From Spirochaetota bacterium (GTDB taxonomy: Bacteria > Spirochaetota > B62-G9 > DRHN01), in assembly GCA_020342115.1 (NCBI GenBank), contig CP070841.1, positions 681,331 through 738,459 of the forward strand: a stretch of DNA of 57,129 nucleotides, in the 5' to 3' direction. This document shows, one piece after another, positions 28,318 through 56,156 of this stretch. Position 1 is the first letter of the stretch; the number at the start of each line of letters is the position of its first letter. The position numbers were made by a program, and so were the translations under genes. The notes under the pieces were generated by a model, which was not told where the DNA came from, searched no databases, and saw only the letters and a program-made list of their open reading frames with translations.

Positions 28318-29127
28318 ATGAATGACATCCAATGGTACTTTCCAAAAACTCTTGAGGAGGTTCAGCCGCATCTCAAAAGAGATGGTGTGAAGCTTCATGG
28401 AGGTGGAACGTGGATTCTCAGGGGAAGCATGAGGGGAATAAAAGGACTCGTCGATCTTGGAAAGCTTGAGCTACACAGTTTTCGAAAGGACAGTCAAACG
28501 GTTGAAATGGGAGCCGGTATGACCTACGCTGAAACCATCAGAAGCATGACCACCATCAATCCTGATCATATCCTTGTAAAAGCGCTTCAACATGCAGCCT
28601 CAACACCGCTGAGAAACATTATCACCCTTGGAGGAACGATCTTTTCCTTTCCGGTATGGTCAGACCTTATGGGACCGCTCATAGCGCTCGATGCAGATGT
28701 TGTGCTCATGGGAGAACGCTCAGAAGCTTACTCCATTACTGAATATGTTAAAAGCTCTGCGCTGAGAAAAGAAAGCCTGATTACTCATGTGCGGTTTAAA
28801 AATATCGGGTGGAACGCCTATTACTATAGAGAAGTTAAAACAAGCTTTGACTACCCTGCCTTTACCATCACAATCCTATTAAAGAAAAATAAAAACTTGA
28901 TAGAGGATACGCGAATAGTAGTTGTGGGCTGTGCCGGAAAGTTCAGCAGGGTAAAGAAGATCGAGGATTATCTAAAAGGCAAAACAACAGACAGTCTTGA
29001 AATAGACGGTATTGCACAAACGCATGAGCTTAAGTTCACAAAAAAGAGGTCTCTCGAACCTGCTTACCTTGAACATTGTGCAGGTGTACAGATCGAAAGG
29101 AGCATTTCAGAACTAACTAGGGGATAA
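28318..29127 (+). CDS. xanthine dehydrogenase-family FAD-binding subunit (CoxM/XdhB-like)
   Basis: 269 aa. LHGGGTWIL and ITLGGTI blocks of the FAD_binding_5 type. First gene of the FAD-FeS-Mo trio. Confidence 0.8.
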   Translation: MNDIQWYFPKTLEEVQPHLKRDGVKLHGGGTWILRGSMRGIKGLVDLGKLELHSFRKDSQTVEMGAGMTYAETIRSMTTINPDHILVKALQHAASTPLRNIITLGGTIFSFPVWSDLMGPLIALDADVVLMGERSEAYSITEYVKSSALRKESLITHVRFKNIGWNAYYYREVKTSFDYPAFTITILLKKNKNLIEDTRIVVVGCAGKFSRVKKIEDYLKGKTTDSLEIDGIAQTHELKFTKKRSLEPAYLEHCAGVQIERSISELTRG

Positions 29128-29130
29128 ATC

Positions 29131-29598
29131 ATGGAAGGATTGTTTATTATAAACGGCAGCGAAAAAAAGCTGTCCTTTGACTCGGGCGACATACTCCTCA
29201 ATGTGCTGAGAGCTAACGGATTTACTGAGGTGAAGTCGGGTTGCCATGAGGGCCAGTGTGGATCATGCGTTATTCTTCTCAATGAGGAGCTTGTAAACTC
29301 CTGCCAGGTATTTGCAGCAGCAGCAGTAGGTAAAGATATCGTTACTATAAAAGGCATTGGGGATATCCACTCACCTCATCCAATGCAGGAAGCCTTTGTA
29401 GAAACTGGCGCAGTCCAGTGTGGCTTCTGTATACCCGGTGTTGTGCTTGCGGCCTACTACCTGTTAAAGAACAATCCAGATCCGGATGATGAAGAGATTT
29501 GCAGAGCACTTGATGGAAATCTATGCCGCTGTACCGGCTATGTGAAGATACATGAGGCTGTGAAACTCGCTGCGAAGAGGATGGCTGAAAATGTCTGA
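29131..29598 (+). CDS. xanthine dehydrogenase-family [2Fe-2S] subunit
   Basis: GCHEGQCGSC...NSC, QCGFCIPG and CRCTGY motifs. Confidence 0.9.
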   Translation: MEGLFIINGSEKKLSFDSGDILLNVLRANGFTEVKSGCHEGQCGSCVILLNEELVNSCQVFAAAAVGKDIVTIKGIGDIHSPHPMQEAFVETGAVQCGFCIPGVVLAAYYLLKNNPDPDDEEICRALDGNLCRCTGYVKIHEAVKLAAKRMAENV

Positions 29599-31918
29599 CA
29601 TGCTGAACATAGGAAAACCTGTACAGAAAATGGACTCCCTCTCCCTCGCTACCGGAACCGAACGGTTTACAGATGATTTTCATGTTGAGAACCCGCTCTA
29701 CTGCGCTATTCTCTACTCCCCCCATGCTCATGCCGAGATAAAAAAAATAGATACATCTACTGCCTTGAAGGTTCCCGGCGTCGTCGATATCATCCACTAC
29801 AACAATGTACCCAGAGTTTTACATACAACTGCAGGACAGGGTTACCCTGAACCGTCTCCCTACGATACACTCCTCTTCGACAGAAGGGTGAGGTTTGTTG
29901 GCGACAGAGTGGCACTTGTCGCAGCCGAAACAGTGCAGAGCGCTCATCAGGCACTGGAAAAAATAATAGTCGACTATAAACCGCTTGAGCCAGTTTTTGA
30001 CCCGGAAAGGGCAATGGATAAAGACACACCTAAACTCCATGTCGACGATGAGCATGCAATGATCCCTGCAACTTACGAGCCTGAAAAAAACCTTGCTGCA
30101 GAGGTTAAAATTTCCTTCGGTGATATGAAAAAGGGATTTGAACAGGCAGATTTTATCGAAGACCACACATATAAGGTACATTATGCTTCACACTGTGCCA
30201 TAGAGCCGCATGCCGTTATCTGTTATTTCGACGAGCGCGGCCGGCTCGTCATTATCTCAACCACACAGGTTCCATTCCATGTGAGGAGGATTGTCGGGCA
30301 GGTACTCGGCATCCCTGTGGGAATGATACGGGTTATAAAGCCCAGGATCGGAGGAGGTTTCGGCGGAAAGCAGGAGGTTTTCCTCGAACCTCTCATTGCA
30401 CTCGTTGCCTGGCGCCACCGTCGTGCTGTAAGGATCTGTTTGACAAGAAAAGAGGTCTTCGTCTCAAGCCGAACACGTCATGCAATGCGGATAAGGCTCA
30501 GGACAGGGGTAAAAAACGACGGAAGAATAACAGCACTCGATATGGACGGGCTCATGAATGCCGGGGCATACGGCACACATGCCCTCACAGTAATCTCAAA
30601 TGTCGGATCCAAGACCCTGCCATTTTTCAACAAGATCGAGAATCTGAACTTCTGTGGAAGAAGCGTGTACACCAACCTCCCTGTCGGAGGTGCATACAGA
30701 GGATACGGCGCAACACAGGGCTACTTTGCCTTCAACCAGCAGATCGATACCATCGCAAGAAGAACAGATAAGGATGTGCTTGAGTATATCAAAAGGTGGC
30801 ATATAAAGGAAGGTGAGACCTCGGAGGTATTCAAAGCTCTGGGTGAAGGGAAGGAGGGAGTCGCGCAGGCCATAAGGTCATGCAAACTCGATGAGTGCAT
30901 CGACAGGGGATCAGAGGCAATAGAGTGGTATAAAAAAAGAGCTAAACGTATCAAGGTTGGAAAGAACATGGTTAAGGGAGTGGGAGCTGCTGTTTCGATG
31001 CAGGGTTCGGGAATACCGAAAATCGATATGGCAGCGTGCTCTATGAAGATGAATGAAGACGGCTCCTTCAACCTCTATGTGGGTGCAACAGATATTGGAA
31101 CCGGCTCAGACACCATACTTGCCCAGATAGCCGGCGAGGTGCTCAGGGTTCCAACCCAGAAGATCATCGTCCTTTCCTCCGACACCGATCTTACCCCCTT
31201 TGACACAGGTGCATATGCATCATCCACCACATATGTGTCCGGTAAGGCTGTAGAAAAATGCGCACACGATATCGCTGAACAGCTCAAAAAAGTAGCCAGC
31301 GGTATGTTAGGAACAGAACAGAAGAACCTCTTCCTTGATTCTGAAAAGGCGATTGACAAGAACACAAAGAAATCTGTGACTTTTACGGACATAGCGCTCT
31401 CTTCAATGTACGAGAAGGACCAGTTTCAGATACAGGCTCATGCATCCCAGACAGTGGACGAGTCCCCTCCTCCCTTTATTGCACAATTTGCAGAGATCGA
31501 TGTCGATCTTGAAACAGGAAAGCTGAAGGTTGTGAAATTCGTCTCAGCTGTTGACTGCGGTCAGCCGATCAATCCGAAACTTGCCGAAGGGCAGGTCGAA
31601 GGAGCTGCAGTAAACGGAATAAGCTATACCCTCTGCGAAGATTACAACTTCGACAGCATAGGGAGGATGACTAATCCCACGTTCTGGGATTACAAGATAT
31701 TCAATATACGCGATATTCCCGAAATGGAGACAATTCTTGTGGGCTCACATGAGGAAACCGGCCCTTTTGGTGCGAAATCTGTTGGAGAAATAGCGATAAA
31801 CGGTCCTGCACCAGCAATTGCCAAGGCCCTGTATGACGCAGCGGGAATAAGGGTATATGAACTTCCCATCACCTCTCAGAAGGTATGGAAGCTTTTACAG
31901 GAAGAAAAACCGGTTTAA
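29591..31918 (+). CDS. xanthine dehydrogenase-family molybdopterin-binding subunit (775 aa)
   Basis: N-terminal KMDSLSLATGTERFTDDF and RIGGGFGGKQE blocks. 8-nt overlap with the FeS subunit gene. Confidence 0.9.
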   Translation: MSDMLNIGKPVQKMDSLSLATGTERFTDDFHVENPLYCAILYSPHAHAEIKKIDTSTALKVPGVVDIIHYNNVPRVLHTTAGQGYPEPSPYDTLLFDRRVRFVGDRVALVAAETVQSAHQALEKIIVDYKPLEPVFDPERAMDKDTPKLHVDDEHAMIPATYEPEKNLAAEVKISFGDMKKGFEQADFIEDHTYKVHYASHCAIEPHAVICYFDERGRLVIISTTQVPFHVRRIVGQVLGIPVGMIRVIKPRIGGGFGGKQEVFLEPLIALVAWRHRRAVRICLTRKEVFVSSRTRHAMRIRLRTGVKNDGRITALDMDGLMNAGAYGTHALTVISNVGSKTLPFFNKIENLNFCGRSVYTNLPVGGAYRGYGATQGYFAFNQQIDTIARRTDKDVLEYIKRWHIKEGETSEVFKALGEGKEGVAQAIRSCKLDECIDRGSEAIEWYKKRAKRIKVGKNMVKGVGAAVSMQGSGIPKIDMAACSMKMNEDGSFNLYVGATDIGTGSDTILAQIAGEVLRVPTQKIIVLSSDTDLTPFDTGAYASSTTYVSGKAVEKCAHDIAEQLKKVASGMLGTEQKNLFLDSEKAIDKNTKKSVTFTDIALSSMYEKDQFQIQAHASQTVDESPPPFIAQFAEIDVDLETGKLKVVKFVSAVDCGQPINPKLAEGQVEGAAVNGISYTLCEDYNFDSIGRMTNPTFWDYKIFNIRDIPEMETILVGSHEETGPFGAKSVGEIAINGPAPAIAKALYDAAGIRVYELPITSQKVWKLLQEEKPV

Positions 31919-31950
31919 CAATACTATAAATGTTAATTCTTTATGTTTGA

Positions 31951-32008: not shown

Positions 32009-32029
32009 GTTAAAGAATAAAAATTACTA

Positions 32030-33187
32030 TTACTTACGCAATCCCTTCTTCGCCGCATCAATGTCTTTCAAACCGTTTCCTGTCACAAGAATAACCACAG
32101 TATCATTATGCGGGATACTGTTCTTCTCCTTTAAAAATCCGGCCAAAGAAGCAGATGCAGCAGGCTCTGCAAAGAGCCCTGTTGTAGATGCAAGCTCTTT
32201 CTGTGCAGCAAGTATCTCGCGGTCTGTAACCTCCACACATCGTCCGTCATATTTATGCAAATACTTTACTGCATAGTACCCGTTTCTCGGAACATCGACA
32301 GAGATTGAATCAGCAACTGTATTGGAGCTGTAGGATTCTATAAAATCTCCATTTCTGAATGCATGGCAGATCGCATTGCTTCCTTCTGCCTGCACTGCAC
32401 ATATAACAGGCATTCTTTTTATCAATCCGAGGTGCAGAAGGTCCTGAAGGCCCTTGTAAAGCCCTCCGATAATAACACCATCTCCTGCTGAAACAAAAAT
32501 CCAGTCAGGCACAGCTCCGAGCTGTGCAGCTCCGAGCTGCTTGTATATCTCGAGCGCCACTGTCTTCTTACCCTCTATGGTAAGAGGATTATATGCAGTG
32601 TTTCTGCTCAAACCCCCATGAGTTTTCGTGTATTCAAGAGATAGTTCGTACGCCTTGTCATAAGTACCATCTACCTCAATCACCTTTGCCCCATACTGGA
32701 GTGCCTGAATGCGCTTTGCCTGGGGAGCAGTGGCTGGAATGAATATCTTTATGTTCAGACCGGCGGCTGCCCCCACACCAGCCATCGAAGAGGCTGCATT
32801 CCCTGTAGAAGCAACAACAACGTCTGGAATTTTCTCTCTGAGCGCAAAAGCTGCAACGAGATATGAAGCCCTGTCCTTTAACGAACCTGTGGGATTGAGG
32901 CTGTCATCCTTTATATAGAGCTTATCGAATCCTGTCTTTTTCCTGAGATTGTGCGGTGTCCAGAGTGGAGTATTCCCCACAGGAATTGGAGGAAAATATT
33001 CTTTTTCTACTGGAAGCAGGTCAAAGATGTCAAAATCTTTCGAAACCTCCCCATCAAAGCTCACCTCCAAAACTCCCCTTAGAGGCTTATTCTCCTGCTG
33101 CTTCAAAGAACACTCAGGACAAACCATCAGATCAGGACTGATCTTAAAATGTTTTCTGCACTCACTGCACTCATAAAAGAACTTCAT
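32030..33187 (-). CDS. threonine-synthase-like fold-type II PLP enzyme with N-terminal 4-Cys zinc ribbon
   Basis: CSEC...CPEC ribbon and PLP-lysine block NPTGSLKDRAS. I prefer the ATG at 33187, which forms an ATGA overlap with the ssnA-like stop. Confidence 0.75.
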   Translation of the reverse strand: MKFFYECSECRKHFKISPDLMVCPECSLKQQENKPLRGVLEVSFDGEVSKDFDIFDLLPVEKEYFPPIPVGNTPLWTPHNLRKKTGFDKLYIKDDSLNPTGSLKDRASYLVAAFALREKIPDVVVASTGNAASSMAGVGAAAGLNIKIFIPATAPQAKRIQALQYGAKVIEVDGTYDKAYELSLEYTKTHGGLSRNTAYNPLTIEGKKTVALEIYKQLGAAQLGAVPDWIFVSAGDGVIIGGLYKGLQDLLHLGLIKRMPVICAVQAEGSNAICHAFRNGDFIESYSSNTVADSISVDVPRNGYYAVKYLHKYDGRCVEVTDREILAAQKELASTTGLFAEPAASASLAGFLKEKNSIPHNDTVVILVTGNGLKDIDAAKKGLRK

Positions 33188-34506
33188 TGAATTTTTTCCA
33201 TCCGCTTCCATAATCTGTCTGCAGCCTTCTGCGCTTTTTCATAAATTGGACCTATATCAATCGGGAACCTTCTGTCCTCATAACAGACAGAACCGTTTAC
33301 GATCACTGTTTTTACATCCCTTGAACACAGACCAAAGGCGATGTGTCCGGCAACATTTTCAGAAACCAGCGGGGTGGGGGCTTTGTAATCATAGATAACA
33401 AGATCGGCTTTATAGCCTTTGCCAACCTTTCCGAACCGGGCATTGAAATAGTTTTCTAATAAACTGTTCCCATTGTGCAGGAAACCTGCAAAATCCTGAG
33501 GCCAGTACGAACCCCCTGCGTCTCTGTGCTTGAAAAATGCAAATTTCATCTCTTCGAACATGTCGCTGCCGATACCATCCGTTCCCAGGGCTACACGGCG
33601 AACCCGGGCAAGTTTTTCTGCATAGCCGATGCTGTTGTTCATATTAGAGCGGGCATTGTGCACAAGAAGACTATCGTGTGTATTTAACCGTTCTATATCT
33701 GCATCTGTGAGATGCACACCGTGGACACATATTGACTTGTCGTCCAGGAGGTCTGCTTCCTCGAGGCGCTGTGTGATATCTTTTTCATAGATATGGTGGG
33801 AATATGACGGATCGTATCTATCCTCAGCTATATGGATGTGAATGCCGCGACGGGTCGACCTGCACGCTTCAGAGAGGCCTTTCAGGGCATCATTACTGAG
33901 AGTAAAGGGGGCATGAGCGCCTATAGCCGCTTCGATGAGCTCCACACCTCCGGATTGTGTCTCTTTGTCAACCATCTCTGCAAAGGCGACATTTTCTTCA
34001 ATTCCCTCTTGCATCCCTTTAACACCATTTCTGTCTGTTACCTCATAGCAGAGTATTCCTCTCAAACCGGCTATCTCGAAGGTCTCTTTCAACACCTCCA
34101 ATGATCCCTTTATAAATGAAGGGGATGCATGGTGATCTATCACGGAGGTGGTACCTGACTTGATTGCCTCGAGCGCGCCTATGAGACCGCTGTAGTACAG
34201 TATCTCCTCATCAATTGCCCTGTCCAGTCTCCACCAGAGGTTTTGGAGGATAGATACAAAATCGCATGAAGGCTCGATCTCGGCTGTGATGCCTCTTGCG
34301 AGCGCTGAATAGAAGTGATTATGGCTGCATACAATACCTGGACTCAACAGATCTCCATCAAGATCGATTACCTTAACATCATTCCCTCTTGGAGCAATGT
34401 CACGTCCTGTTTCAATTATTTCATTCCCATCAATCAATACATCCGTTTTCTTTTCAACTGAAGGGGGCTCAAAATGAACAACCGTGGCATTTTTCAATAA
34501 AAGCAT
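33184..34506 (-). CDS. ssnA: SsnA-like amidohydrolase
   Basis: 440 aa (E. coli SsnA is about 442). Metal motif VCSHNHFYSALARG, later HIAED and GTDG blocks. Adjacent to ygfK as in E. coli. Confidence 0.75.
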   Translation of the reverse strand: MLLLKNATVVHFEPPSVEKKTDVLIDGNEIIETGRDIAPRGNDVKVIDLDGDLLSPGIVCSHNHFYSALARGITAEIEPSCDFVSILQNLWWRLDRAIDEEILYYSGLIGALEAIKSGTTSVIDHHASPSFIKGSLEVLKETFEIAGLRGILCYEVTDRNGVKGMQEGIEENVAFAEMVDKETQSGGVELIEAAIGAHAPFTLSNDALKGLSEACRSTRRGIHIHIAEDRYDPSYSHHIYEKDITQRLEEADLLDDKSICVHGVHLTDADIERLNTHDSLLVHNARSNMNNSIGYAEKLARVRRVALGTDGIGSDMFEEMKFAFFKHRDAGGSYWPQDFAGFLHNGNSLLENYFNARFGKVGKGYKADLVIYDYKAPTPLVSENVAGHIAFGLCSRDVKTVIVNGSVCYEDRRFPIDIGPIYEKAQKAADRLWKRMEKIQ

Positions 34507-34532
34507 ATACCCTCCTCTGCCGGCAGATATTT

Positions 34533-44542: not shown

Positions 44543-44558
44543 CCTCCATGGAGGGGGC

Positions 44559-46840: not shown

Positions 46841-46855
46841 CAGGAAACTCTGTGT

Positions 46856-48223: not shown

Positions 48224-48228
48224 AGGAA

Positions 48229-48978: not shown

Positions 48979-49410
48979 TTAACTCGAAAGGACTTTCTCA
49001 ATGATAGCTATTAATTCTTCTGGATTAACGGGTTTTTCAACTAAACCATCAGGTTTAGTATCGATTCCTAATTCTTCCTTCTTCATTTCAATCACTGCAT
49101 CATCGAAGAGAAGCTCTTTCATATCAACACCTGTCTCTTCTGATGCACCGCTTACTATGATGATGGGGATATTTTTATAATTCTCGCTTTTCTTTATGTT
49201 ATGAATGAATTGCATACCGCTTTCTTCAGGCATCATAAGATCTAAAAATACTATATCAGGTTTTTGTTCTTTTACTCTCTCGAAAGCTTCGTTCCCATTA
49301 TTAGCCGAGTATGTTTTAAAACCATTATTTTCCAGGATTCTTGACATAAATGCAACCGCATCCGGCTCATCATCAACGACAAGTGCTAATTTACCTGTAA
49401 AGTCGGCCAT
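48979..49410 (-). CDS. stand-alone response regulator receiver protein (CheY-like)
   Basis: LVVDDEPD acidic pocket, phospho-acceptor in DIVFLDLMMP, and IIIVSG. No output domain. Confidence 0.85.
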   Translation of the reverse strand: MADFTGKLALVVDDEPDAVAFMSRILENNGFKTYSANNGNEAFERVKEQKPDIVFLDLMMPEESGMQFIHNIKKSENYKNIPIIIVSGASEETGVDMKELLFDDAVIEMKKEELGIDTKPDGLVEKPVNPEELIAIIEKVLSS

Positions 49411-49772: not shown

Positions 49773-50348
49773 TCAGGTGTCGATTCCCCTTACCGCCCCA
49801 TAATCCTGAGAATCATCAATATCAACGAGTACATGACGGCAATCTACAGGCACCGCAAGCGTGGGATATATAGCAAGCACATCTCGTAATGTGCTTTTCT
49901 CATTAAACTGGCTGATCGGCTCTACAAGCTCCTTTGACAGCAAAAGCGGGTGTCCCTTCTTGCCTTTATATTTCGGTATAACCACAGGAATATGTTTGAA
50001 GCGAAGCAGTGTTTCGTATACTGATCGGTCTACAAGGGGCATGTCTCCGAGCGCTATGAAGAACCTTTCTGTTACGACGGCTGATACCCCAAGTTTAATA
50101 GACGAGAACATAGGCTTTTTATAACCAGGATTGTAGACAATTGTTACATCATCTCTTTTTCCAAAGAGTTCTCTGAGCTCTCCTGCGCGATACCCGGTAA
50201 TAAGTATTATCCTGCTGCAAACTGTGAGTGCATTGCCAACACTGCACTCTATTACAGTAGAACCCTCAATTGGGAGCTTGAGCTTCCACTCTCCCATCCT
50301 TCTGGATTCACCAGCAGCGAGCATTACACAGTCTATGGTTTCATTCAT
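49773..50348 (-). CDS. mocA: molybdenum cofactor cytidylyltransferase (MocA/YgfJ family)
   Basis: VMLAAGESRRMG nucleotide-binding motif. 191 aa. Last gene of the transporter operon. Confidence 0.8.
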   Translation of the reverse strand: MNETIDCVMLAAGESRRMGEWKLKLPIEGSTVIECSVGNALTVCSRIILITGYRAGELRELFGKRDDVTIVYNPGYKKPMFSSIKLGVSAVVTERFFIALGDMPLVDRSVYETLLRFKHIPVVIPKYKGKKGHPLLLSKELVEPISQFNEKSTLRDVLAIYPTLAVPVDCRHVLVDIDDSQDYGAVRGIDT

Positions 50349-50350
50349 TT

Positions 50351-51280
50351 CTATTCTCTCTCATAGGGATTACAAAACGCAGCTGGAAATCGGGTGTTGC
50401 GAGCGAGTATACACAACAAGGCAATCACAGCAACATAGGGGAGCATTAAAATGAATTCACGCGGAACATCCAGCCCAAGGATCTGCAAGCCATAGGTAAG
50501 CGAGTGGCAGATTCCGAATAAAAATGCTCCGTAGAAAATTCCTGCAGGGTTCCATTTTGCTAGCATCACAACAGCTATGGCAATAAAGCCTCTTCCCTGG
50601 GTCATATGAAACACAAAAAATGACAGGTCACAGATAGATAGAAATGCTCCTCCAAGCCCGGCCAGCACTCCTTCAAATAGTAGCGTCAGATACCGTGTTC
50701 GGTACACATTCACACCATGAACATCCGCCGCAGCAGGATTTTCTCCTACTGCGCGTACGTTCAATCCAAAGCTTGTTTTATAGAGAACCCACCATGCAAT
50801 TGGGAGCAGGATCCAGCTTATGTAGGTTATCAGATGCTGGTTGAAGATAGAGCTTGCATAGGGGATTTTCGAAAGAAGAGGAATTGCTGTTTTATCAGTG
50901 ATGTCAGGAATAACGGGAAATTCAGCTCCAAAAAGAATTCTGAATAGCAAACTAGTTATCCCTATTGCAAACAACCCAATACCTAATCCTGCGACTATTT
51001 GATTGATCTTTAGATAGATTACTAGATATCCAAAGAGTAATCCTAGCACCACTCCAGCAGCCATGCCTGATAAAAGACCAATGTAAACATTCTCTGTAAT
51101 AAGAGCCGCAATAAACGCTGTAAAAGCACCAAGCAGCATCATGCCTTCAAGACCAAGGTTTAATATTCCTCCTGATTCGACAAAATCTTCTCCTATTGCT
51201 GCAAGAATAATCGGTGTCGAAGCAGTGAGGGTACCGCCAAAGAGCACTGTAAAAAAGGGTTCTGAAAATATTGAGTTCAT
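50351..51280 (-). CDS. ABC transporter permease (BMP/nucleoside-type)
   Basis: 309 aa polytopic membrane protein, paired with a second permease, a double ATPase and a BMP binding protein. Confidence 0.8.
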   Translation of the reverse strand: MNSIFSEPFFTVLFGGTLTASTPIILAAIGEDFVESGGILNLGLEGMMLLGAFTAFIAALITENVYIGLLSGMAAGVVLGLLFGYLVIYLKINQIVAGLGIGLFAIGITSLLFRILFGAEFPVIPDITDKTAIPLLSKIPYASSIFNQHLITYISWILLPIAWWVLYKTSFGLNVRAVGENPAAADVHGVNVYRTRYLTLLFEGVLAGLGGAFLSICDLSFFVFHMTQGRGFIAIAVVMLAKWNPAGIFYGAFLFGICHSLTYGLQILGLDVPREFILMLPYVAVIALLCILARNTRFPAAFCNPYERE

Positions 51281-51285
51281 TGTTC

Positions 51286-52329
51286 TTAAAAAAGTTTACT
51301 CCTCTTTTTAAGGTACTCGCTTACACCAAAGAAGATCAGCATTAGAGCCTCTGCTACCTGTACAAAGAATACAGGGACATTTGCTGCACGTGACATGAAT
51401 TCCCCCCCAATCGAAAGAAAGGAAAAGAAATAAGCAAGGGGAATAACTGCGAAACCGTTGAATCGTGCAAGAAAAACGAGAGGAATAGCCGAAAAAGCAT
51501 ATTGCGGATTCCACTCTGCCTGAAACGAGCCCTTGATGCCGAGAACATCATTCGCTCCTGCAAGTCCGGCAAACCCCCCGCTCAACAGCATTGCAAGAAC
51601 AATGACCTTTTTAATATTAATACCCGCATAAATCGCAGCCTTTTTATTTTCCCCGGCAAACCTAAACTCGTATCCCAGAGCCGTTCTTTTTATGAAATAG
51701 TGTACAAGTACTACCATTACAAGACCAACAATCAAACCTATATGAACCTCTGTGAGAGAGATATTGGGTAGTCTCTTTTCAATTGGAAGAACCGCTGTTT
51801 GAGGAAAAAGCCCGGGCTGTGCATTCAATGGATATCTCACGAGATAGGAGGTAAAATTGACGGCAATAAAATCCATCATCATTGTTACAATGATCTCATT
51901 GATCTCGTATTTTGCCTTTAGTATGGCAGGAATACACACCCAGGAGGCGCCACCGATGAATCCCAGTAATCCCAACACCACAAAGTAAAAAAAGATGGGG
52001 AGCTTATCCATTATGAGAGGAGCAATGCCAGCGGCCAGAACTGCACCTATTAAAAACTGGCCGTTCCCTCCAATATTCCAGACTCCTGCCTTGAAGACAA
52101 TTATCAACCCTGCACTCATGATAAGCAGGGGAGCCATACGCTTGAGTGACTCTGTTATACCAAGATAGGTTCCCGCCCCCAATGAGAAAAGTTCATAATA
52201 TGTTTTCAGGGGATTAAATCCGATGATGAGAAGTATGATTCCGCCTGCAACCAGTGCAGCAAGAATAGCAAAGACCGGCCCGATTACTACTCCTGCAGCC
52301 TGCTTTGATCCTATCCGTATAAGATTCAA
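51286..52329 (-). CDS. ABC transporter permease (BMP/nucleoside-type)
   Basis: 347 aa polytopic membrane protein. ATGA-type overlap with the ATPase gene. Confidence 0.8.
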   Translation of the reverse strand: MNLIRIGSKQAAGVVIGPVFAILAALVAGGIILLIIGFNPLKTYYELFSLGAGTYLGITESLKRMAPLLIMSAGLIIVFKAGVWNIGGNGQFLIGAVLAAGIAPLIMDKLPIFFYFVVLGLLGFIGGASWVCIPAILKAKYEINEIIVTMMMDFIAVNFTSYLVRYPLNAQPGLFPQTAVLPIEKRLPNISLTEVHIGLIVGLVMVVLVHYFIKRTALGYEFRFAGENKKAAIYAGINIKKVIVLAMLLSGGFAGLAGANDVLGIKGSFQAEWNPQYAFSAIPLVFLARFNGFAVIPLAYFFSFLSIGGEFMSRAANVPVFFVQVAEALMLIFFGVSEYLKKRSKLF

Positions 52330-53873
52330 TTCATGATTCCTAACATCAATCTCCCGATCTCTTCTTTAGTTGCTTCCTTACCTGGCACTACTCTGATTAA
52401 TTCTCCTTTATACATTACACCGATCCGATCGCTTACCTCCTTTAACTCATCGAGGTCAGTAGAAATTAAAAGCACCGATACTCCGCGCCTGCTCCTGGCC
52501 CTTATCTCATCTCTAATATATCGTGTTGTCATTACATCCAAACCATGAGTGGGTTTGTTGGCCACAAGAACTGAAGGGTTGTAAGAGAGCTCCCGTGCGA
52601 GTATCAGTTTCTGGATATTTCCACCAGACAGAGTCTTTACGAGATCATTTGAATCCTGAGCCTTTATTGAATAATCACGAATGAGCTTGTTTCCATTATC
52701 TCTAATTGCTTTATTATTCAAAAAAATTCCACTTTTTACGTAAGGTTTCTTTTTATAACATCGAAATATTGCATTCTCCGCAAGAGAGAAGTTTGCAACA
52801 CTGCCCTCCGTTATTCTATCTTCGGTTATATAATAAATCCCCCTCTCATTCATGAGGCTGACAGGCATGTTCGTTATATCTTCTTTATTGAGAGTAATCC
52901 TACCCGAGATAACTTTTCGCTGCCCTGCAATTACTTCTGCCAGCTCCTTCTGACCATACCCGTCAACTCCTGCAATGCCAAAAACCTCTCCCCTGTGAAC
53001 AGTAAAAGAAACTTCCTTCAATGTTTCTAAACCTCTATCGTTTGTAGCAGTCACTCCTTCCAGTGTTAAGACGGCATCTAAGGAGTCCTTTTCTGGCCCT
53101 TTCTTTTTACCTTCGCCAAATGCTGCTTTTTTGAACATCATATTCACAATCCTGTTTTTTAGCTGCTTTTCTTCTTTCTTTATATCGATACCATCCAAAT
53201 CGATCTCCCCGCTCTTTTCCCCTTCACTCAATACTGTTATTCTGCTACTTATGTCCAATGCCTCCTCAATTTTATGAGTAATAAATACCACCGACTTCCC
53301 GGATGCAACCATGTTTTTTAATACCTTGAAAAATCCTTTGATTTCTATGGGTGACAAAAAGGATGTTGGCTCATCAAGTATAAGAACATCAGACCCACGG
53401 TAGAACAGTTTAATGATCTCGACCCTCTCCTGTTCTCCTGCAGAAAGCTGCCATATCTTTGTTTCAAGGTCCACTTCGAGTCCGTATATACGCGAAATCT
53501 CCTTCAGCTTTTGCTCTGCATACTTCCGCATTAGATAATATTTCTTATTCGTTCCTAACAAGATATTTTCCAGTACAGACAGTGTGGGAACCAGAGTAAG
53601 ATGCTGATATACCATCCCGACACCCAGCGCCAACGCATCATTGGGCGAGGCGAGTTTAGCCTTTCTTCCTTGAATAAATATCTCGCCCCTGTCTGGATGG
53701 TATAATCCCGATAAAATATTCATAAGAGTCGTTTTACCGGCACCGTTTTCTCCCAGGAGGGCGTGAATATCGCCTCTTCTAAGGCTAAAATCGATGTGGT
53801 CATTTGCAACCACTTCACCGAATCGCTTGGTGATACCTCTCATCTCAACAACGCTTTCATTACCAGCAGTCAT
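52326..53873 (-). CDS. ABC transporter ATP-binding protein with duplicated ATPase domains
   Basis: Walker A GENGAGKTT, signature LSAGEQ and Walker B LILDEP. The second half carries LSGGNIQK. Confidence 0.9.
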   Translation of the reverse strand: MTAGNESVVEMRGITKRFGEVVANDHIDFSLRRGDIHALLGENGAGKTTLMNILSGLYHPDRGEIFIQGRKAKLASPNDALALGVGMVYQHLTLVPTLSVLENILLGTNKKYYLMRKYAEQKLKEISRIYGLEVDLETKIWQLSAGEQERVEIIKLFYRGSDVLILDEPTSFLSPIEIKGFFKVLKNMVASGKSVVFITHKIEEALDISSRITVLSEGEKSGEIDLDGIDIKKEEKQLKNRIVNMMFKKAAFGEGKKKGPEKDSLDAVLTLEGVTATNDRGLETLKEVSFTVHRGEVFGIAGVDGYGQKELAEVIAGQRKVISGRITLNKEDITNMPVSLMNERGIYYITEDRITEGSVANFSLAENAIFRCYKKKPYVKSGIFLNNKAIRDNGNKLIRDYSIKAQDSNDLVKTLSGGNIQKLILARELSYNPSVLVANKPTHGLDVMTTRYIRDEIRARSRRGVSVLLISTDLDELKEVSDRIGVMYKGELIRVVPGKEATKEEIGRLMLGIMN

Positions 53874-53911
53874 TTTTAATAAGACCTTTTACTCCTTACC
53901 GATATATAACG

Positions 53912-54967
53912 TTATTTGAAGAGTCTTCTCATATACGATCTCATCTCTCTGGTATCGGCTATGTTGGAAACCTTGATCCTTCCGTTCTTTATCCCTTCCT
54001 CTGCCTGCTTCATTGCAGCTCTTGCGACAGAAGGAATCTCTTTATATACGGCCAGCTCAATACCGCCGTTCTCAAGCGTTTGACGGTAATCATCCCCGAA
54101 CCTGTCACTGTAGATATCGATGAGCATCATCTCATAAACAACGTCGAAATTCCACAATACTGATGCAAGAAGGATCTGCTTCCTGTCAATGCCCGTTTTA
54201 TCCCCAATAACGTCAATGAACCAAACCTTTCCACCATCTTTCGCTCTATTCTCTTCACACGCTTTCATGATACCAAAGGAAGCCCCGTCACCCATGCCAA
54301 ATATTACATCTGCTCCTGCAGCTATTTGGGCTTCGGTGTTTCTTTTTCCACCAATGGCATCTTCATACGATGCTTCGCCGATAACATTATAAAGGAAATT
54401 TATTTTGGGATTTATGGAGTGAAGACCCTCCATAAAACCTACAGTCATTCTGTTCCAATCCGGAACCTCGGCTGAGGTAACACACCCCACAACGTTCGTC
54501 CTTGTCATCTTTGCAGCAAGCACTCCAGCAAGATAGGCGCCTTTCTGAGCTTCTCCCTCATAATTCGATACAAGCCCCGGCCTGACAGCAGCCGGATTCT
54601 CTACAACCGCAACTCTCACATCCCTCTCAACAGCGACCTCGGGAGTGACTGTCTGGTATCCTGATGCGTGAGCAATGATGAGATCGAACCCCTTTCTAGC
54701 TAGATCGCGAAGTACAGGCTTGATATCTCCATACCCCTGGTTCTCCGCAACCTCTATGGTAAGATGCCACTTGTCCTTCAGCTCTCTCAATCCATCCACA
54801 CCCATCTGGTTCCAGCCCTGGTCAGTACTGCTTGCAGGCACCACAACGGCCACTTTCAATGGACGAGCTCCAGGGTGGGGAGGAATCGCCGGTGCTTTTG
54901 TGGTTGTATAAAAGAACATCAAAACATACAACAAAACTATAAAAAGGAATGAAGGGAACTTTCTCAT
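53912..54967 (-). CDS. BMP-family (PnrA/Med-like) substrate-binding protein
   Basis: Signal peptide, then VAVVVPASSTDQGWNQMGVDGL, typical of basic-membrane-protein purine/nucleoside binders. Confidence 0.75.
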   Translation of the reverse strand: MRKFPSFLFIVLLYVLMFFYTTTKAPAIPPHPGARPLKVAVVVPASSTDQGWNQMGVDGLRELKDKWHLTIEVAENQGYGDIKPVLRDLARKGFDLIIAHASGYQTVTPEVAVERDVRVAVVENPAAVRPGLVSNYEGEAQKGAYLAGVLAAKMTRTNVVGCVTSAEVPDWNRMTVGFMEGLHSINPKINFLYNVIGEASYEDAIGGKRNTEAQIAAGADVIFGMGDGASFGIMKACEENRAKDGGKVWFIDVIGDKTGIDRKQILLASVLWNFDVVYEMMLIDIYSDRFGDDYRQTLENGGIELAVYKEIPSVARAAMKQAEEGIKNGRIKVSNIADTREMRSYMRRLFK

Positions 54968-54989
54968 TTAATGAAATCCTCCGTCTTGC

Positions 54990-56156
54990 TTAAACATAGT
55001 GTAATACTCTCTCAACACCGCTTCCTATCTTGACCTGAAATCCGAGTTTTTGCAGCGCTTTTTCCAGCGCAGTAATGGCCACCAATGCATTATCGATAGT
55101 TGCACTGTATCCCATGTGCCCTATTCTAATTATCTTACTTTCAAACCCTGTAACTTCTCCAGCAATAAGCACTCCATACTCATCAGCCATGGTTCTTCTC
55201 AACCGCTCATCATCTATCCCATCCGGAATACATACTGTGGTAACGGTTTCAGAGGCAATTTCTTCAGACTCCGGCCATAGTTCCAAACCTATTGCCTGGA
55301 CTGCCTCTCGTATTGCCCGGGCCACCTTTTTATGTCTGGCAAATATATTTTCAAGGCCCTCCTCAAGAATTTCTGTCGCAGCCTCATTGATTGCATAAAT
55401 CTCGGAAACAAAAGGAGTAAATGGAAATGTCCTGCTTTTGATCCAAGTTTCTCTGTAATCCAGCATACTAAGATAGGTATTTCTCAATGGGTTTTTCTTA
55501 TTCTCCATGGCTTCCCATGCTCTTGTGCTTACAGAAATAGGGGTAAGGGCGGGAGGACAGGAGAGGCATTTCTGGGATCCGCATATGCATATATCAATGT
55601 TCCATTCATCAGGACGTATCTCCATACCGCCAAGCGCTGCCACACTGTCTACTATAGTCAATATGTCGAACTGCTTAGCGAGTGCGCAAATCTTTTCTAC
55701 TGGATTTGTTATTCCCACAGGTGTATCCATATGTACAACGGTAATTGCCTTTATATCTTTTTCATCTTCTAATTTTTTCTTTACTTTCTCAGGGGCTATC
55801 GCCTTGGTATAGTCTTCCCTTAAACGTACCACCTCTCCTCCATGATTTTCCACATAGATACCGAACCATGCTCCATAGGGTCCGTTGTCAAGAACAAGCA
55901 CTCGATCTCCCCTGTTCAGGATATTCGCAACCGCAGCCTCCAATCCAAGCACTGCTTCACCCTGCATAATGATGAGATCCTTTTTGGTTTGAAATATCCT
56001 TTGAAGTTTTTCAGTCGTGTCCTGAAAAAAAGTAATGAATTCAGGATCATAGTGGTGTGTTACTGGTAACGAGAGAGCCCTGAGAGTCCTCGGTGATATT
56101 TCCACAGGGCCAGGAGTCATTAAATATTTTGTTTTTTTTCTAAGGTCCTTCTGCAT
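54990..56156 (-). CDS. class-V aminotransferase (alanine-glyoxylate / serine-pyruvate type)
   Basis: LMTPGPVEISP N-terminus and PLP-lysine block CGSQKCLSCPP. Confidence 0.8.
   Translation of the reverse strand: MQKDLRKKTKYLMTPGPVEISPRTLRALSLPVTHHYDPEFITFFQDTTEKLQRIFQTKKDLIIMQGEAVLGLEAAVANILNRGDRVLVLDNGPYGAWFGIYVENHGGEVVRLREDYTKAIAPEKVKKKLEDEKDIKAITVVHMDTPVGITNPVEKICALAKQFDILTIVDSVAALGGMEIRPDEWNIDICICGSQKCLSCPPALTPISVSTRAWEAMENKKNPLRNTYLSMLDYRETWIKSRTFPFTPFVSEIYAINEAATEILEEGLENIFARHKKVARAIREAVQAIGLELWPESEEIASETVTTVCIPDGIDDERLRRTMADEYGVLIAGEVTGFESKIIRIGHMGYSATIDNALVAITALEKALQKLGFQVKIGSGVERVLHYV

Follow-up and report, generated by a model that had tools for sequence, protein, structure and literature searches.

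Two studies published in 2025 reconstituted every canonical step of the anaerobic purine pathway, in which urate is converted to 2,8-dioxopurine, then to ureidomethylhydantoin, 2,3-diureidopropionate, diaminopropionate and finally pyruvate. SsnA acts there as a ring-opening amidohydrolase on dihydro-2,8-dioxopurine, while the ureido group attacked by YgeW is disputed in the literature. The view in the first-pass annotation of this locus that biochemical assignments are missing for most steps is thus outdated. ATCase-like paralogues in purine clusters are likewise already known, having been described as 'pseudo-ATCases' in 2013. In pseudo-ATCase group 1 (ureidoglycine carbamoyltransferase), the transferase replaces the M20 allantoate amidohydrolase and pairs with carbamate kinase.

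The window analysed here is a 57 kb stretch of a 3.5-Mb genome, and four tightly packed operons fill positions 28318-56156 of it (ORF calls, NCBIfam and Pfam; Table 1). All the genes named in the first-pass annotation were recovered in place by these methods, and the purine/urate catabolic supercluster that it proposed is borne out by ygfK and ssnA, whose products score above the TIGR03315 and TIGR03314 cutoffs. The minus-strand run from the pseudo-ATCase through the YgeW-type transferase, carbamate kinase, YgfK and SsnA to the ThrC-like enzyme is arranged head to tail, with gaps of no more than 146 bp. The flanks are unrelated to the cluster, with choice-of-anchor-D proteins to its left and a Zn alcohol dehydrogenase to its right, and an upstream 1063-aa ORF (18527-21718), considered as a second YgfK, was rejected as an RND pump. 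The comparison set comprised 160 loci drawn from genomes and metagenomes other than this one, each extending at most 10 kb from its anchor gene. Across these loci, the ThrC-like, 486-aa PLP and ATCase-like proteins have homologues that repeatedly accompany ssnA, ygfK and genes for molybdenum enzymes, ygeW-type transferases and carbamate kinase, which supports counting the replacement genes as part of the system.

Table 1. Features of the cluster, with the matches or motifs that identify them (bit scores are given against model cutoffs where both are reported).
Feature	Coordinates	Strand	Basis
Operon 1: trimer 1, FAD-FeS-Mo order	28318-31918	+	
FAD subunit of trimer 1, YgfM analogue	28318-29127	+	PF00941, PF03450
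[2Fe-2S] subunit of trimer 1	29131-29598	+	NCBIfam XdhC_XDHase 148 bits
Mo subunit 1 (Mo1), 775 aa, XdhD-type	29591-31918	+	closer to E. coli XdhD than to XdhA
Operon 2: ATCase-like, short YgeW-like, carbamate kinase, YgfK, SsnA, ThrC-like	40803 to 32030	-	
ThrC-like fold-type-II PLP enzyme, N-terminal Zn ribbon	32030-33211	-	PF00291; CSEC...CPEC
SsnA	33184-34506	-	TIGR03314 570 > 455
YgfK, Fe-S flavoprotein, 1063 aa	34533-37724	-	TIGR03315 1374 > 835
Carbamate kinase, YqeA/ArcC type	37870-38823	-	TIGR00746 363 > 358
Short YgeW-type carbamoyltransferase, 327 aa	38824-39807	-	35% identity to YgeW
Pseudo-ATCase, 317 aa	39850-40803	-	STRT, HPTQ kept; HSLP; no RxQ
Operon 3: trimer 2 (Mo-FeS-FAD), XdhC, 486-aa PLP, amidohydrolase, P-loop NTPase	41111-48819	+	
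Mo subunit 2 (Mo2), 710 aa, xanthine dehydrogenase/purine hydroxylase type	41111-43243	+	
[2Fe-2S] subunit of trimer 2	43233-43703	+	pucE 162 bits, XdhC_XDHase 158 bits
FAD subunit of trimer 2	43697-44542	+	XdhB_XDHase 166 bits; 28% identity to E. coli XdhB
XdhC-family molybdenum-cofactor insertion chaperone	44559-45383	+	PF02625, PF13478; TIGR02964 132 bits
486-aa CysK/CBS-like PLP enzyme, N- and C-terminal extensions	45380-46840	+	weak PF00291
8-oxoguanine-deaminase-family amidohydrolase, 455 aa	46856-48223	+	NF006055 572 > 532
P-loop NTPase	48229-48819	+	PF03266 91 bits; Walker A GHTGIGKS
Stand-alone response-regulator receiver domain (system membership uncertain)	48979-49410	-	PF00072
Operon 4: class-V aminotransferase, BMP ABC importer, MocA	56156 to 49773	-	
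MocA/YgfJ molybdenum cofactor cytidylyltransferase	49773-50348	-	TIGR03310 162 bits, cutoff 186
BMP-family ABC importer: substrate-binding protein, ATPase, two permeases	50351-54967	-	PF02608
Class-V aminotransferase, first gene of transporter operon	54990-56156	-	PF00266

YgfK and SsnA share 50% (over 1066 aa) and 56% identity with their E. coli counterparts, and the carbamate kinase is 47% identical to YqeA; YgfK is predicted to reduce 2,8-dioxopurine. Mo1 is 37% identical to E. coli XdhD (506 bits, against 402 bits to XdhA) and carries the XdhD-specific loop KALGE419GK, matching EcXdhD E606, which is missing from XdhA. Unlike E. coli, with its fused XdhD plus YgfM, trimer 1 has three separate subunits: the [2Fe-2S] subunit aligns to residues 1-150 of XdhD, the N-terminal domain of the fused protein, and the FAD subunit is weakly similar to YgfM and XdhB, with orthologues (26-51% identity) standing ahead of FeS1-Mo1 in related loci. 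Mo1 and fused XdhD are mutually exclusive in these loci (12 and 8, respectively, with both in none). We infer that Mo1 is the reductase converting urate to 2,8-dioxopurine.

Mo2 contains the motifs GGAFGGKE, AFRGFG and AGE, which correspond to E802, R880 and E1261, the catalytic triad of bovine xanthine dehydrogenase. That enzyme is also its top match among solved structures, and the top NCBIfam matches, pucD and Se_dep_XDH, both fall under cutoff. Membership of either Mo subunit among the CO dehydrogenases, aldehyde oxidoreductases or hydroxybenzoyl-CoA reductases, which would have spoken against a purine cluster, is ruled out by their XdhD- and xanthine-dehydrogenase-type features. The P-loop NTPase comes after XdhC and the Mo2 operon in seven related loci, and is therefore likelier to be a maturation factor than the lower-pathway replacement originally suggested; it is probably an accessory for molybdenum-enzyme maturation. 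MocA is 37% identical to its E. coli namesake and starts 2 bp past the upstream permease gene, while YqeB and YqeC are both absent from the 57 kb window. The second amidohydrolase, first noted for its HHHFYQTLTR motif (present at residue 65, with HLAE as its HxxE motif), can now be placed in the 8-oxoguanine deaminase family (426 bits to PDB 3hpa, 392 bits to 7ww2) and is a candidate feeder deaminase giving urate or xanthine.

The BMP ABC importer matches NCBIfam NF047927-30, in every case under cutoff, and such systems were found again in related clusters. The class-V aminotransferase is present as annotated but scores under the pyridoxamine-pyruvate transaminase cutoff (386 < 600), and none of the 160 related loci (each reaching 10 kb from its anchor) contains a homologue, which weakly indicates that it is not a conserved cluster member.

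The lower half differs from the canonical E. coli set: ygfK and ssnA are shared, but hyuA, ygeY and ygeX are missing from the window, as the first-pass annotation had claimed. With both E. coli proteins and versions from closer relatives as queries, tblastn detected no homologue or remnant of hyuA, an allantoinase-like gene, ygeY, ygeX or yqeC in the 57 kb, and the intergenic gaps are too short to conceal a gene. Two carbamoyltransferases are encoded instead. The short YgeW-type enzyme keeps the published YgeW-type motifs STRT/HPMQ/HALP and has neither of the ornithine motifs SMG and HCLP, but it fails the YgeW model TIGR03316 (169 < 500); it also falls under the ornithine carbamoyltransferase cutoff (254 < 281). 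Its neighbour passes the ATCase model TIGR00670 (249 > 237) and to that extent is ATCase-like, but its third motif is HSLP instead of HP[LG]P and PVV occupies the RxQ position, which by published criteria excludes a genuine ATCase and marks a pseudo-ATCase. Relatives of this protein are encoded on more than 535 metagenome contigs, of which 80 were retained (74-89% identical). Among the 32 loci of 8 kb or more that are anchored on the ATCase-like gene, carbamate kinase occurs in 29, the short YgeW-type transferase in 26 and a distant M20 protein in only 2; the three enzymes form a conserved triad. In the 79 ThrC-like-anchored genome loci, YgeY is found in 45 and the pseudo-ATCase in 3, never together. 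At locus L155, HyuA and UacT are followed by a molybdenum enzyme, an SsnA-like protein, a true diaminopropionate ammonia-lyase (NF006058, 386 > 276) and the triad, with no YgeY. Because of this gene set, we place the two transferases at the steps that immediately precede diaminopropionate; the pseudo-ATCase adjoins a true diaminopropionate ammonia-lyase in L163 as well. Like group 1, it would stand in for an M20 enzyme, here YgeY, with carbamate kinase as partner, and it is inferred to phosphorolyse the 2-ureido (N-alpha-carbamoyl) group.

The Zn-ribbon ThrC-like enzyme, recognised from the outset, lies just under the thrC cutoff (164.9 < 167.1) and has RNTAYNPLT in place of the ThrC motif NSxNPxR. 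Its relatives, present in 434 species genomes, usually adjoin a ygeY or ygeW-type gene, the spot of ygeX in E. coli. Of 80 loci, 47 have the gene directly after ygeY (22), short YgeW-type (17), ssnA (6), long-form ygeW (1) or carbamate kinase (1), and YgeX occurs in only 5/79 ThrC-like-anchored loci. A single operon at L166 comprises allantoinase-like, YgeY, short YgeW-type, ThrC-like, 486-aa PLP and carbamate kinase genes. These placements suggest a terminal lyase in place of YgeX; since five Desulfuromonadales loci hold YgeX, YgeY and YgeW alongside the ThrC-like and 486-aa PLP pair, it is not a simple one-for-one substitute. The 486-aa protein, the second fold-type-II PLP enzyme of the cluster, had been called OrtB-like, an identity rejected on NCBIfam and structural comparison: Foldseek searches with its AlphaFold2 model (pLDDT 85) matched only CBS/CysK cores (TM-score on query 0.55). 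Its relatives are 71-88% identical across phyla among the matches listed, and its gene is often found with that of the ThrC-like enzyme, the two lying within 10 kb of each other in 28 of the 50 loci that span 12 kb or more.

We read the region as encoding anaerobic reductive (2,8-dioxopurine) purine/urate fermentation with a canonical upper half and a non-orthologous lower half, with a likelihood slightly better than even; homology carries the upper half, and motifs and gene neighbourhoods the lower. The BMP ABC system would bring in substrate, trimer 2 and the 8-oxoguanine-deaminase-family amidohydrolase would channel purines to urate, and XdhC, MocA and probably the NTPase would mature the cofactor. 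Trimer 1 would reduce urate to 2,8-dioxopurine, YgfK would reduce the purine, and SsnA would open the pyrimidine ring to give ureidomethylhydantoin. As no hydantoinase candidate was found by tblastn in the 57 kb window, the proposed pathway has a gap at hydantoin opening. After that step, phosphorolysis would strip both ureido groups from 2,3-diureidopropionate, the short YgeW-type transferase taking the side-chain 3-ureido group and the pseudo-ATCase the N-alpha 2-ureido group, a step that otherwise falls to the M20 hydrolase YgeY, which is missing here. The ThrC-like enzyme, probably with the CysK-like 486-aa enzyme, would convert 2,3-diaminopropionate to pyruvate and ammonia.

The gap could be filled if the 8-oxoguanine-deaminase-family amidohydrolase were a HyuA substitute opening ureidomethylhydantoin or 5-ureidodihydrouracil. 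It is the sole spare amidohydrolase in otherwise full clusters without HyuA (for example L036, with ygfK, ssnA, ygeY, ThrC-like, 8-oxoG-deaminase-like, ygfM, xdhD, ygeW and xdhABC), it lies directly upstream of the triad in at least 16 contigs, in the place that a HyuA-like gene takes in a few others, and SsnA shows that the same subgroup can open rings. However, the protein exceeds the 8-oxoguanine deaminase equivalog cutoff, matches a characterised member at 426 bits, keeps the deaminase HxxE motif and occurs alongside HyuA-like genes in L023, L041, L065, L066 and L073; a urate-forming deaminase also suits a urate cluster without extra assumption, and we regard the substitution as unlikely. 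A role for the 486-aa protein in sulfur or selenium delivery to the molybdenum cofactor, with XdhC and the NTPase, agrees with its position in the Mo2 operon beside XdhC and usually the NTPase (in the window and about 10 related loci), with H2S-producing CysK-type enzymes among its structural neighbours and with the absence of YqeB and YqeC from the 57 kb. Such a role is improbable in view of the 15 loci in which the gene adjoins the ThrC-like gene, the more frequent arrangement, its place between the two transferases in Spirochaetota loci L005, L006, L008 and L085, and its presence in modules L141 and L160, which have no molybdenum enzyme within 10 kb.

Those two metagenome contigs bear on a further question, since their modules come with a GntR regulator and a BMP ABC importer of their own, and SsnA, YgfK and a molybdenum enzyme are all absent within 10 kb. 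Stand-alone modules of this kind (amidohydrolase, pseudo-ATCase, YgeW-type, carbamate kinase, ABC importer, ThrC-like and 486-aa PLP) mean that the enzymes may serve another ureide, and a similar module at L166 sits beside the oxamate carbamoyltransferase genes allFGH. The six enzymes of our locus might then be a separate ureide-fermentation module, merely co-located and acting on another imported substrate. We give this little credence: ygfK, ssnA and the ThrC-like gene share a strand with the transferase and carbamate kinase genes and are intermixed with them, in the window as in its closest relatives, and at L155 the triad is linked with UacT, HyuA, diaminopropionate ammonia-lyase and an SsnA-like protein. 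It is equally doubtful that the pathway is canonical with hyuA, ygeY and ygeX scattered elsewhere, and that the ATCase-like, ThrC-like and CysK-like proteins are ordinary pyrB, thrC and cysK products, here by chance or using the carbamoyl phosphate produced. The ATCase and thrC model scores fit that account, the data cover 57 kb of the genome with the three genes possibly beyond, and close relatives L085, L086, L089 and L003 encode an allantoinase-like cyclic amidohydrolase beside Mo1 that is missing in the window. Against it, all three proteins have substrate-side changes (HSLP without RxQ in the first, loss of NSxNPxR in the second, long extensions at both termini of the third), the 160 loci, from many phyla, preserve the synteny with purine-catabolic genes, no pyr, thr or cys gene lies next to them, and the loci of the closest relatives (L004-L008, L085) likewise lack YgeY and YgeX.

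Under the reductive fermentation that we favour, carbamate kinase would make two ATP per urate rather than one. Of the 'variant, undescribed lower pathway' first proposed, the OrtB-like and P-loop NTPase parts have been dropped, but the variant itself stands as a recurrent one, and such enzymes are found in hundreds of environmental genomes.

ORF mapping combined with NCBIfam and Pfam scans resolved positions 28318-56156 of the window into four compact transcription units and a lone receiver domain, with unrelated genes on both flanks. The purine gene set listed in the first-pass annotation is present there and correct. Rfam and tRNA scans of the window gave no matches, and scans for sigma-70 promoters and terminators stayed at chance level and were uninformative on operon boundaries. 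For comparison, ORFs were called in 160 related loci from other genomes and metagenomes, and each was compared with the window and E. coli proteins. These loci are anchored on the variant genes themselves (ThrC-like or ATCase-like) and extend only 10 kb either side of the anchor, so their frequencies are not population estimates.

Features of the window and their positions
Feature	Position	Strand	Content
DeoR-regulated operon	4462-16121	-	SdhA-like flavoprotein, creatininase/IolN-like hydrolase, FGGY kinase, two GlcD-like FAD oxidases, ETF alpha and beta
373-aa protein of DeoR operon	8285-9406		zero Pfam or NCBIfam matches
Creatininase-family hydrolase	12394-13263
DeoR regulator	15348-16121
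1063-aa ORF	18527-21718		RND efflux permease
DUF3795 protein	21968-22414
Tandem pair, first gene	24078-25952		~625 aa, five 'choice-of-anchor D' repeats
Tandem pair, second gene	26229-28118		~625 aa, five 'choice-of-anchor D' repeats
Unit A	28318-31918	+	FAD subunit, [2Fe-2S] subunit, 775-aa molybdenum subunit (Mo1)
Unit B	40803 to 32030	-	ATCase-like transferase, 327-aa transferase, carbamate kinase, YgfK, SsnA, 393-aa ThrC-like PLP protein
Unit C	41111-48819	+	710-aa molybdenum subunit (Mo2), [2Fe-2S] subunit, FAD subunit, XdhC, 486-aa PLP protein, 455-aa amidohydrolase, PF03266 NTPase
Lone receiver domain	48979-49410
Unit D	56156 to 49773	-	class-V aminotransferase, BMP substrate-binding protein, ABC ATPase, two permeases, MocA
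Aminotransferase and BMP ABC cassette of unit D	50351-56156
Alcohol dehydrogenase	56682-57129	+	Zn-dependent, medium-chain (CGICGTDLH, PF08240); 526 bp past the cluster, cut by the window end

XdhC and MocA are maturation factors, and the NTPase, whose gene follows XdhC in seven related loci, is probably another. The MocA gene starts 2 bp past the upstream permease gene and is apparently co-transcribed with the aminotransferase and BMP ABC cassette. Importers of the BMP ABC type turn up repeatedly in related clusters; for the class-V aminotransferase, the 160 related loci, within their reach of 10 kb either side of the anchor, offer no counterpart. The cassette resembles the NCBIfam 'putative B6 ABC transporter' with a pyridoxamine-pyruvate transaminase, all scores lying below cutoff, and a purine, a nucleoside and vitamin B6 are candidate substrates of its importer.

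Outside the cluster, the 1063-aa ORF was considered as a second YgfK and rejected, being an RND efflux permease. Between this efflux pump and the purine cluster lies the tandem pair, both members of which weakly match the OS_HP2 (seleno)protein domain. A DUF3795 protein is encoded near the cluster in both the window and a Vecturithrix locus (L001:14643-15182), which may be coincidence. The DeoR-regulated operon also encodes a 110-aa protein that covers no more of SdhB than its N-terminal 2Fe-2S part; the operon as a whole resembles an uncharacterised pathway, linked to ETF, for a sugar or polyol acid.

The first-pass annotation treated most steps of anaerobic urate degradation as biochemically unassigned, a view now outdated by two studies that reconstituted the whole 2,8-dioxopurine pathway (Li et al. 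2025; Liu et al. 2025). In these studies, urate is reduced to 2,8-dioxopurine by XdhD-YgfM (XdhAC in C. sporogenes), YgfK and SsnA yield ureidomethylhydantoin, and HyuA produces 2,3-diureidopropionate. YgeW then uses phosphate to release one ureido group as carbamoyl phosphate, from which YqeA makes ATP; YgeY cuts off the other ureido group to give 2,3-diaminopropionate, and YgeX converts this to pyruvate and ammonia. Which ureido group YgeW attacks is, according to a commentary, disputed between the two groups.

Set against the E. coli/C. sporogenes cluster (xdhD-ygfM, ygfK, ssnA, hyuA, ygeW, yqeA, ygeY and ygeX), the upper half of the pathway in the window is canonical. YgfK (TIGR03315, 1374 bits, cutoff 835; 50% identity to E. 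coli YgfK), SsnA (TIGR03314, 570 bits, cutoff 455; 56% identity to E. coli SsnA), encoded next to YgfK, and carbamate kinase (TIGR00746, 363 bits, cutoff 358) are orthologues. The window further shares with E. coli MocA, a second xanthine dehydrogenase, a putative purine deaminase and a transferase that is YgeW-type by its motifs. An ABC importer takes the place of the UacT and XanQ permeases.

The molybdenum subunit of unit A, Mo1, matches E. coli XdhD (37% identity, 506 bits) better than XdhA (402 bits). It shares an insertion otherwise confined to XdhD (KALGE419GK in Mo1) that bears Glu606, the residue that orients urate for 2,8-dioxopurine formation (Li et al.). Unlike the fused enzyme, trimer 1 has its FAD and Fe-S parts encoded as separate genes, and because the Fe-S domain is separate, Mo1 falls below the TIGR03313 cutoff (590 against 1102). 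Mo1-type trimers occur in 12 related loci and fused XdhD-YgfM in eight, never together, and a Mo2-type or XdhABC-type enzyme can accompany either. This mutual exclusion with shared partners points to trimer 1 being the three-gene version of XdhD-YgfM.

Mo2, encoded alongside both of its partner subunits (Fe-S and FAD), carries GGAFGGKE, AFRGFG and AGE motifs, which correspond to the bovine catalytic residues E802, R880 and E1261. Bovine xanthine dehydrogenase is its best solved-structure match, and its family HMM scores are below cutoff (pucD, 415 against 784; Se_dep_XDH, 393 against 830). Both Mo subunits fall outside the CO dehydrogenase, aldehyde oxidoreductase and hydroxybenzoyl-CoA reductase groups, which upholds their earlier placement with the purine-hydroxylase/XdhD kind. 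The pairing of Mo1 with Mo2 parallels that of C. sporogenes, which in the 2025 work pairs a xanthine dehydrogenase with a 2,8-dioxopurine dehydrogenase.

The 455-aa amidohydrolase scores 572 bits against NF006055, the 8-oxoguanine deaminase equivalog (cutoff 532). Like 8-oxoguanine deaminase (PDB 3hpa, 7ww2), with which it aligns full-length (426 bits to 3hpa), it has the HxxE motif, and HHHFYQTLTR stands at residue 65; its product would be urate. Unlike that enzyme, it is encoded inside a molybdenum-enzyme operon, and genes of its family head triads of pseudo-ATCase, YgeW-type transferase and carbamate kinase in related loci, so that its physiological substrate may differ.

Divergent forms of the upper enzymes were also seen elsewhere. 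An unclassified metagenome-assembled genome (L022:4428-6143) encodes a 571-aa 'half YgfK' that matches only the N-terminal 519 positions of TIGR03315, has no GltD-like FAD/NAD module and adjoins a divergent SsnA (33% identity). Three Marinimicrobia loci (L030, L044 and L080) likewise give divergent YgfK-like (36-38%) and SsnA-like (34%) matches.

The lower half differs. Unlike the E. coli/C. sporogenes cluster, the window region has no HyuA, YgeY or YgeX, and it has in addition an ATCase-like, a ThrC-like and a CysK-like protein. Using tblastn with the E. coli proteins (locus L083) and closer relatives' versions, we found no homologue or remnant of hyuA, ygeY, ygeX or yqeC in the 57 kb, in agreement, for this window, with the earlier claim that the first three are missing. 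Queries with E. coli HyuA, Krumholzibacteriia HyuA and the relatives' allantoinase-like protein returned nothing in the 57 kb; YgeY gave no match in the window better than E = 1, and YgeX gave only superfamily-level matches there (23-28% identity), to the ThrC-like and 486-aa PLP genes. Among the selenium markers of Haft and Self 2008, neither YqeC nor selD had a match in the window, and the best resemblance to YqeB was only a 274-aa XdhC-like protein (28% identity).

There is also no candidate for a hydantoin-opening enzyme in the window. The upstream creatininase-family hydrolase was set aside for this role; it is part of the unrelated DeoR-regulated operon about 15 kb away. In the close relatives L085, whose pseudo-ATCase is 88% identical to that of the window, L086, L089 and L003, a gene for an allantoinase-like cyclic amidohydrolase (TIGR03178, 345, cutoff 358) directly follows Mo1. 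This protein is a plausible opener of 5-(ureidomethyl)hydantoin, since that compound and allantoin are one CH2 apart. The gene is locally absent from the window, from L004 and from several other loci, and at about 60% identity two of three contexts of its homologues are unrelated to purines, so the family is not specific to such clusters. Either the opener is encoded elsewhere in the genome, or its role is filled by SsnA or the 8-oxoguanine-deaminase-family enzyme.

The ATCase-like protein of unit B exceeds the cutoff for aspartate carbamoyltransferase (TIGR00670, 249 against 237). Its motifs nevertheless depart from the published ATCase criteria, HP[LG]P and RxQ (Barba et al. 2013, Table 1), both of which are lost. 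Like the ATCase paralogues that Barba et al. 2013 (PMC4016543) defined as pseudo-ATCases, it keeps STRT and HPTQ, has P. abyssi ATCase as its closest solved structure and neighbours carbamate kinase in a purine-catabolic cluster; together with its neighbours it agrees with that definition throughout, in motifs (H[ST]LP or HSLP, with RxQ lost) and in context (purine or hydantoin genes with carbamate kinase or ygeW). We assign it on these grounds to the pseudo-ATCases. PyrB and ArgI sequences served for comparison, and the sequence of the solved P. abyssi ATCase confirmed the key alignment. Across the family, STRTR and HPTQ are retained. It has HSLP where ATCases have HP[LG]P, and carries a nearly invariant EPVVQ, in 80 relatives, at the TRxQ site of ATCases, with PVV at the RxQ position.

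Group 1 of the published pseudo-ATCases is, on the evidence shown, a ureidoglycine carbamoyltransferase (Rxyl_2847), proposed to replace the M20 allantoate amidohydrolase by phosphorolysis and to feed carbamate kinase; a group-2 member in Nocardioides adjoins a ygeW homologue, xdhABC and hyuA (PMC4016543). The window protein differs from these groups in that its RxQ-site residues, PVV (or VQP with a two-residue shift), match none of the three cleanly. It also differs in its context, the anaerobic YgfK/SsnA route without uricase or allantoinase, which makes 2,3-diureidopropionate, or the 2-ureido product of this compound, the likely substrate in place of allantoate.

The adjacent 327-aa transferase has the YgeW-type motifs STRT, HPMQ and HALP (the Barba signature) and no ornithine SMG or HCLP. 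It is a short form without the YgeW insertions and, unlike its E. coli/C. sporogenes counterpart, falls well below the YgeW model (TIGR03316, 169, cutoff 500).

A metagenome scan placed pseudo-ATCase relatives on more than 535 contigs, the 80 retained being 74-89% identical; the closest loci are metagenome contigs at 88% identity. In the 32 ATCase-like-anchored loci of at least 8 kb, carbamate kinase (29), the short YgeW-type transferase (26), the ThrC-like protein (16) and 8-oxoguanine-deaminase-family proteins (13) recur, and an M20 protein is present in only two, both distant from YgeY. YgeY and pseudo-ATCase are never found together in the ThrC-like-anchored set (45 and three loci, respectively). 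The most informative locus, L155, has no YgeY and runs HyuA and UacT, molybdenum enzyme, SsnA-like protein, diaminopropionate ammonia-lyase, pseudo-ATCase, short YgeW-type transferase, carbamate kinase and a xanthine-dehydrogenase-like trimer; its ammonia-lyase is a true one (NF006058, 386, cutoff 276).

Two stand-alone metagenomic modules (L141:7815-20951 and L160:4155-17257) share the order 8-oxoguanine-deaminase-family amidohydrolase (661 bits), GntR regulator, pseudo-ATCase, short YgeW-type transferase, carbamate kinase, BMP ABC importer, ThrC-like protein, GT2 glycosyltransferase and 486-aa PLP protein. Within 10 kb, neither has SsnA, YgfK or a molybdenum enzyme, and these modules may ferment an imported ureide.

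The ThrC-like PLP enzyme, listed by the first-pass annotation among the non-canonical cluster genes, is indeed a recurrent neighbour of purine genes and a dedicated cluster member. With a profile of the family, relatives were detected in 434 species-representative genomes. The 80 best loci (57-74% identity) belong to Spirochaetota, WOR-3, Neomarinimicrobiota, Acidobacteriota, KSB3, Desulfuromonadales and other phyla, the closest being Spirochaetota metagenome-assembled genomes at 71-74%. Purine-cluster genes are present in 25 of the 26 ThrC-like-anchored loci of at least 20 kb: SsnA in 22, YgeY and Mo2 in 18 each, the 486-aa PLP protein in 14, YgfK in 13, and Mo1 or XdhD in 13, with YgeX in only two. 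Forty-seven of the 80 loci have one of five such genes directly upstream on the same strand (ygeY 22, short YgeW-type 17, ssnA six, long-form ygeW one, carbamate kinase one). As the E. coli order is ygeW-ygeX-ygeY (L083), the ThrC-like gene sits where E. coli has ygeX.

Solved threonine synthases are the best structure matches of this 393-aa protein (165 bits) and share its PLP-lysine motif, NPTGSxKDR. Against this likeness stand a TIGR00260 (thrC) score just under cutoff (164.9 against 167.1 bits), an N-terminal Zn ribbon (CSEC...CPEC), the catabolic gene context and the loss of the invariant NSxNPxR motif. All four solved threonine synthases read NSVNPxRxEGQKT, whereas the ThrC-like family reads RNT(A/G)YNPxTxEGKKT, and the window protein RNTAYNPLT at the NSxNPxR position. 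NSxNPxR binds the substrate phosphate, a role that falls to N154, S155 and R160 in the Thermus enzyme. These motifs argue that the enzyme is not a threonine synthase. Like YgeX, which is encoded beside ygeY and ygeW in the E. coli-type cluster, it is a fold-type-II PLP enzyme (PF00291) whose gene holds the same neighbourhood position; unlike YgeX, to which it is only 25% identical over 208 residues, it belongs to the threonine-synthase branch and has the Zn ribbon.

The 486-aa PLP protein is CysK/CBS-like by sequence and by its predicted fold. It carries CysK-type motifs (FPTGAHK, STGN, GSSGT and HRIEGIG), and its AlphaFold2 model (pLDDT 85) matches only CysK/CBS catalytic cores (query TM-score ~0.55, 20-25% identity), with no structure match for the N-terminal 90 residues or the C-terminal helical domain. 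The best 120 relatives, from many phyla, are 71-88% identical and 482-496 aa long, and deeper full-length branches are 31-47% identical. The gene directly follows the ThrC-like gene in 15 loci; in the Spirochaetota loci nearest to the window it is flanked by the two transferase genes, and elsewhere it comes after XdhC/NTPase in Mo2-type operons, as in the window. An Anaerolineae locus (L166:1-21341) has an operon of allantoinase-like protein, YgeY, short YgeW-type transferase, ThrC-like and 486-aa PLP proteins, carbamate kinase and xanthine dehydrogenase; placed back to back with this operon are the oxamate carbamoyltransferase genes allFGH, along with those for an Ldh_2 dehydrogenase and a xanthine/uracil permease.

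Several other readings of these proteins were weighed. That the ATCase-like and ThrC-like genes are housekeeping pyrB and thrC was rejected on motifs and on synteny across the 160 loci. The OrtB-like label first given to the 486-aa protein did not hold, as there is no match to OrtB (NF040741) at E <= 1e-5 and CysK and CBS match it best in both sequence and fold. Its placement after XdhC/NTPase fits a rival role in cofactor sulfuration, while its placement after the ThrC-like gene and between the transferases fits a catabolic one; the most economical guess is beta-elimination or beta-replacement on a beta-N-substituted alanine (diaminopropionate or albizziin). Simple redundancy of the two PLP enzymes with YgeX is contradicted by five Desulfuromonadales loci (L043, L046, L047, L058 and L059; Desulfuromusa, Geopsychrobacteraceae), in which YgeX, YgeY and YgeW occur together with the ThrC-like/486-aa pair. 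Here ygeW, carbamate kinase, ygeY and ygeX are 52-74% identical to those of E. coli, and transcription of the pair diverges from theirs.

From motifs and gene neighbourhoods, we infer the following functions for the lower pathway. The pseudo-ATCase would take the N-alpha (2-) ureido group of 2,3-diureidopropionate and the YgeW-type enzyme the side-chain (3-) ureido group; together they would convert it to diaminopropionate, yielding two carbamoyl phosphates and two ATP. Taken as a whole, the wider reading is tentative and, in our judgement, rather unlikely to be right: that environmental anaerobes have a fully phosphorolytic lower branch, in which pseudo-ATCase and short YgeW-type transferase double the yield to two ATP per urate; that a ThrC-derived lyase and the highly conserved CysK-derived 486-aa enzyme replace diaminopropionate ammonia-lyase; that in this lineage the hydantoin is opened without an enzyme of the HyuA/allantoinase type, by SsnA or an 8-oxoguanine-deaminase-family hydrolase; and that the lower module also serves as a stand-alone ureide-fermentation cassette.

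Non-orthologous swaps of single steps have a precedent in the C. difficile urate cluster, where UacX stands in for YgfK and UacY for YgeW plus YqeA, trading energy conservation against irreversibility. There phosphorolysis gives way to hydrolysis with less ATP; the window apparently shows the opposite, with YgeY hydrolysis giving way to a second phosphorolysis. The lower gene set is widespread; given this precedent (2025) and the pseudo-ATCase concept (2013), it is not a new kind of system. In full-text literature searches, no paper connected the ygfK/ssnA pathway with genes of the ThrC-like, CysK-like or ATCase-like kind. In the SsnA-neighbourhood survey of Li et al., membership of PF00291 sufficed for a protein to count as YgeX and membership of PF00185 for YgeW, which left the variant invisible.

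It took until 2025 for the reductive urate pathway to be solved, and gut Bacillota and E. coli are the only bacteria for which this was done. In Spirochaetota, WOR-3, Marinimicrobia, Acidobacteriota and other anaerobes, many from sediments, this locus and its many relatives encode a different set of predicted late-step enzymes. With one ATCase-type transferase (N-alpha-carbamoyl chemistry) and one YgeW-type transferase in a cluster without YgeY, regiospecificity is directly assayable, which bears on the YgeW dispute. A second phosphorolysis, if true, would double the ATP gained per urate, which matters for purine-fermentation energetics and for designing uricolytic probiotics. In metagenome-assembled genomes, many of the proteins now labelled 'threonine synthase', 'cysteine synthase A' or 'aspartate carbamoyltransferase' probably act in catabolism, and such labels would mislead biosynthetic reconstructions.
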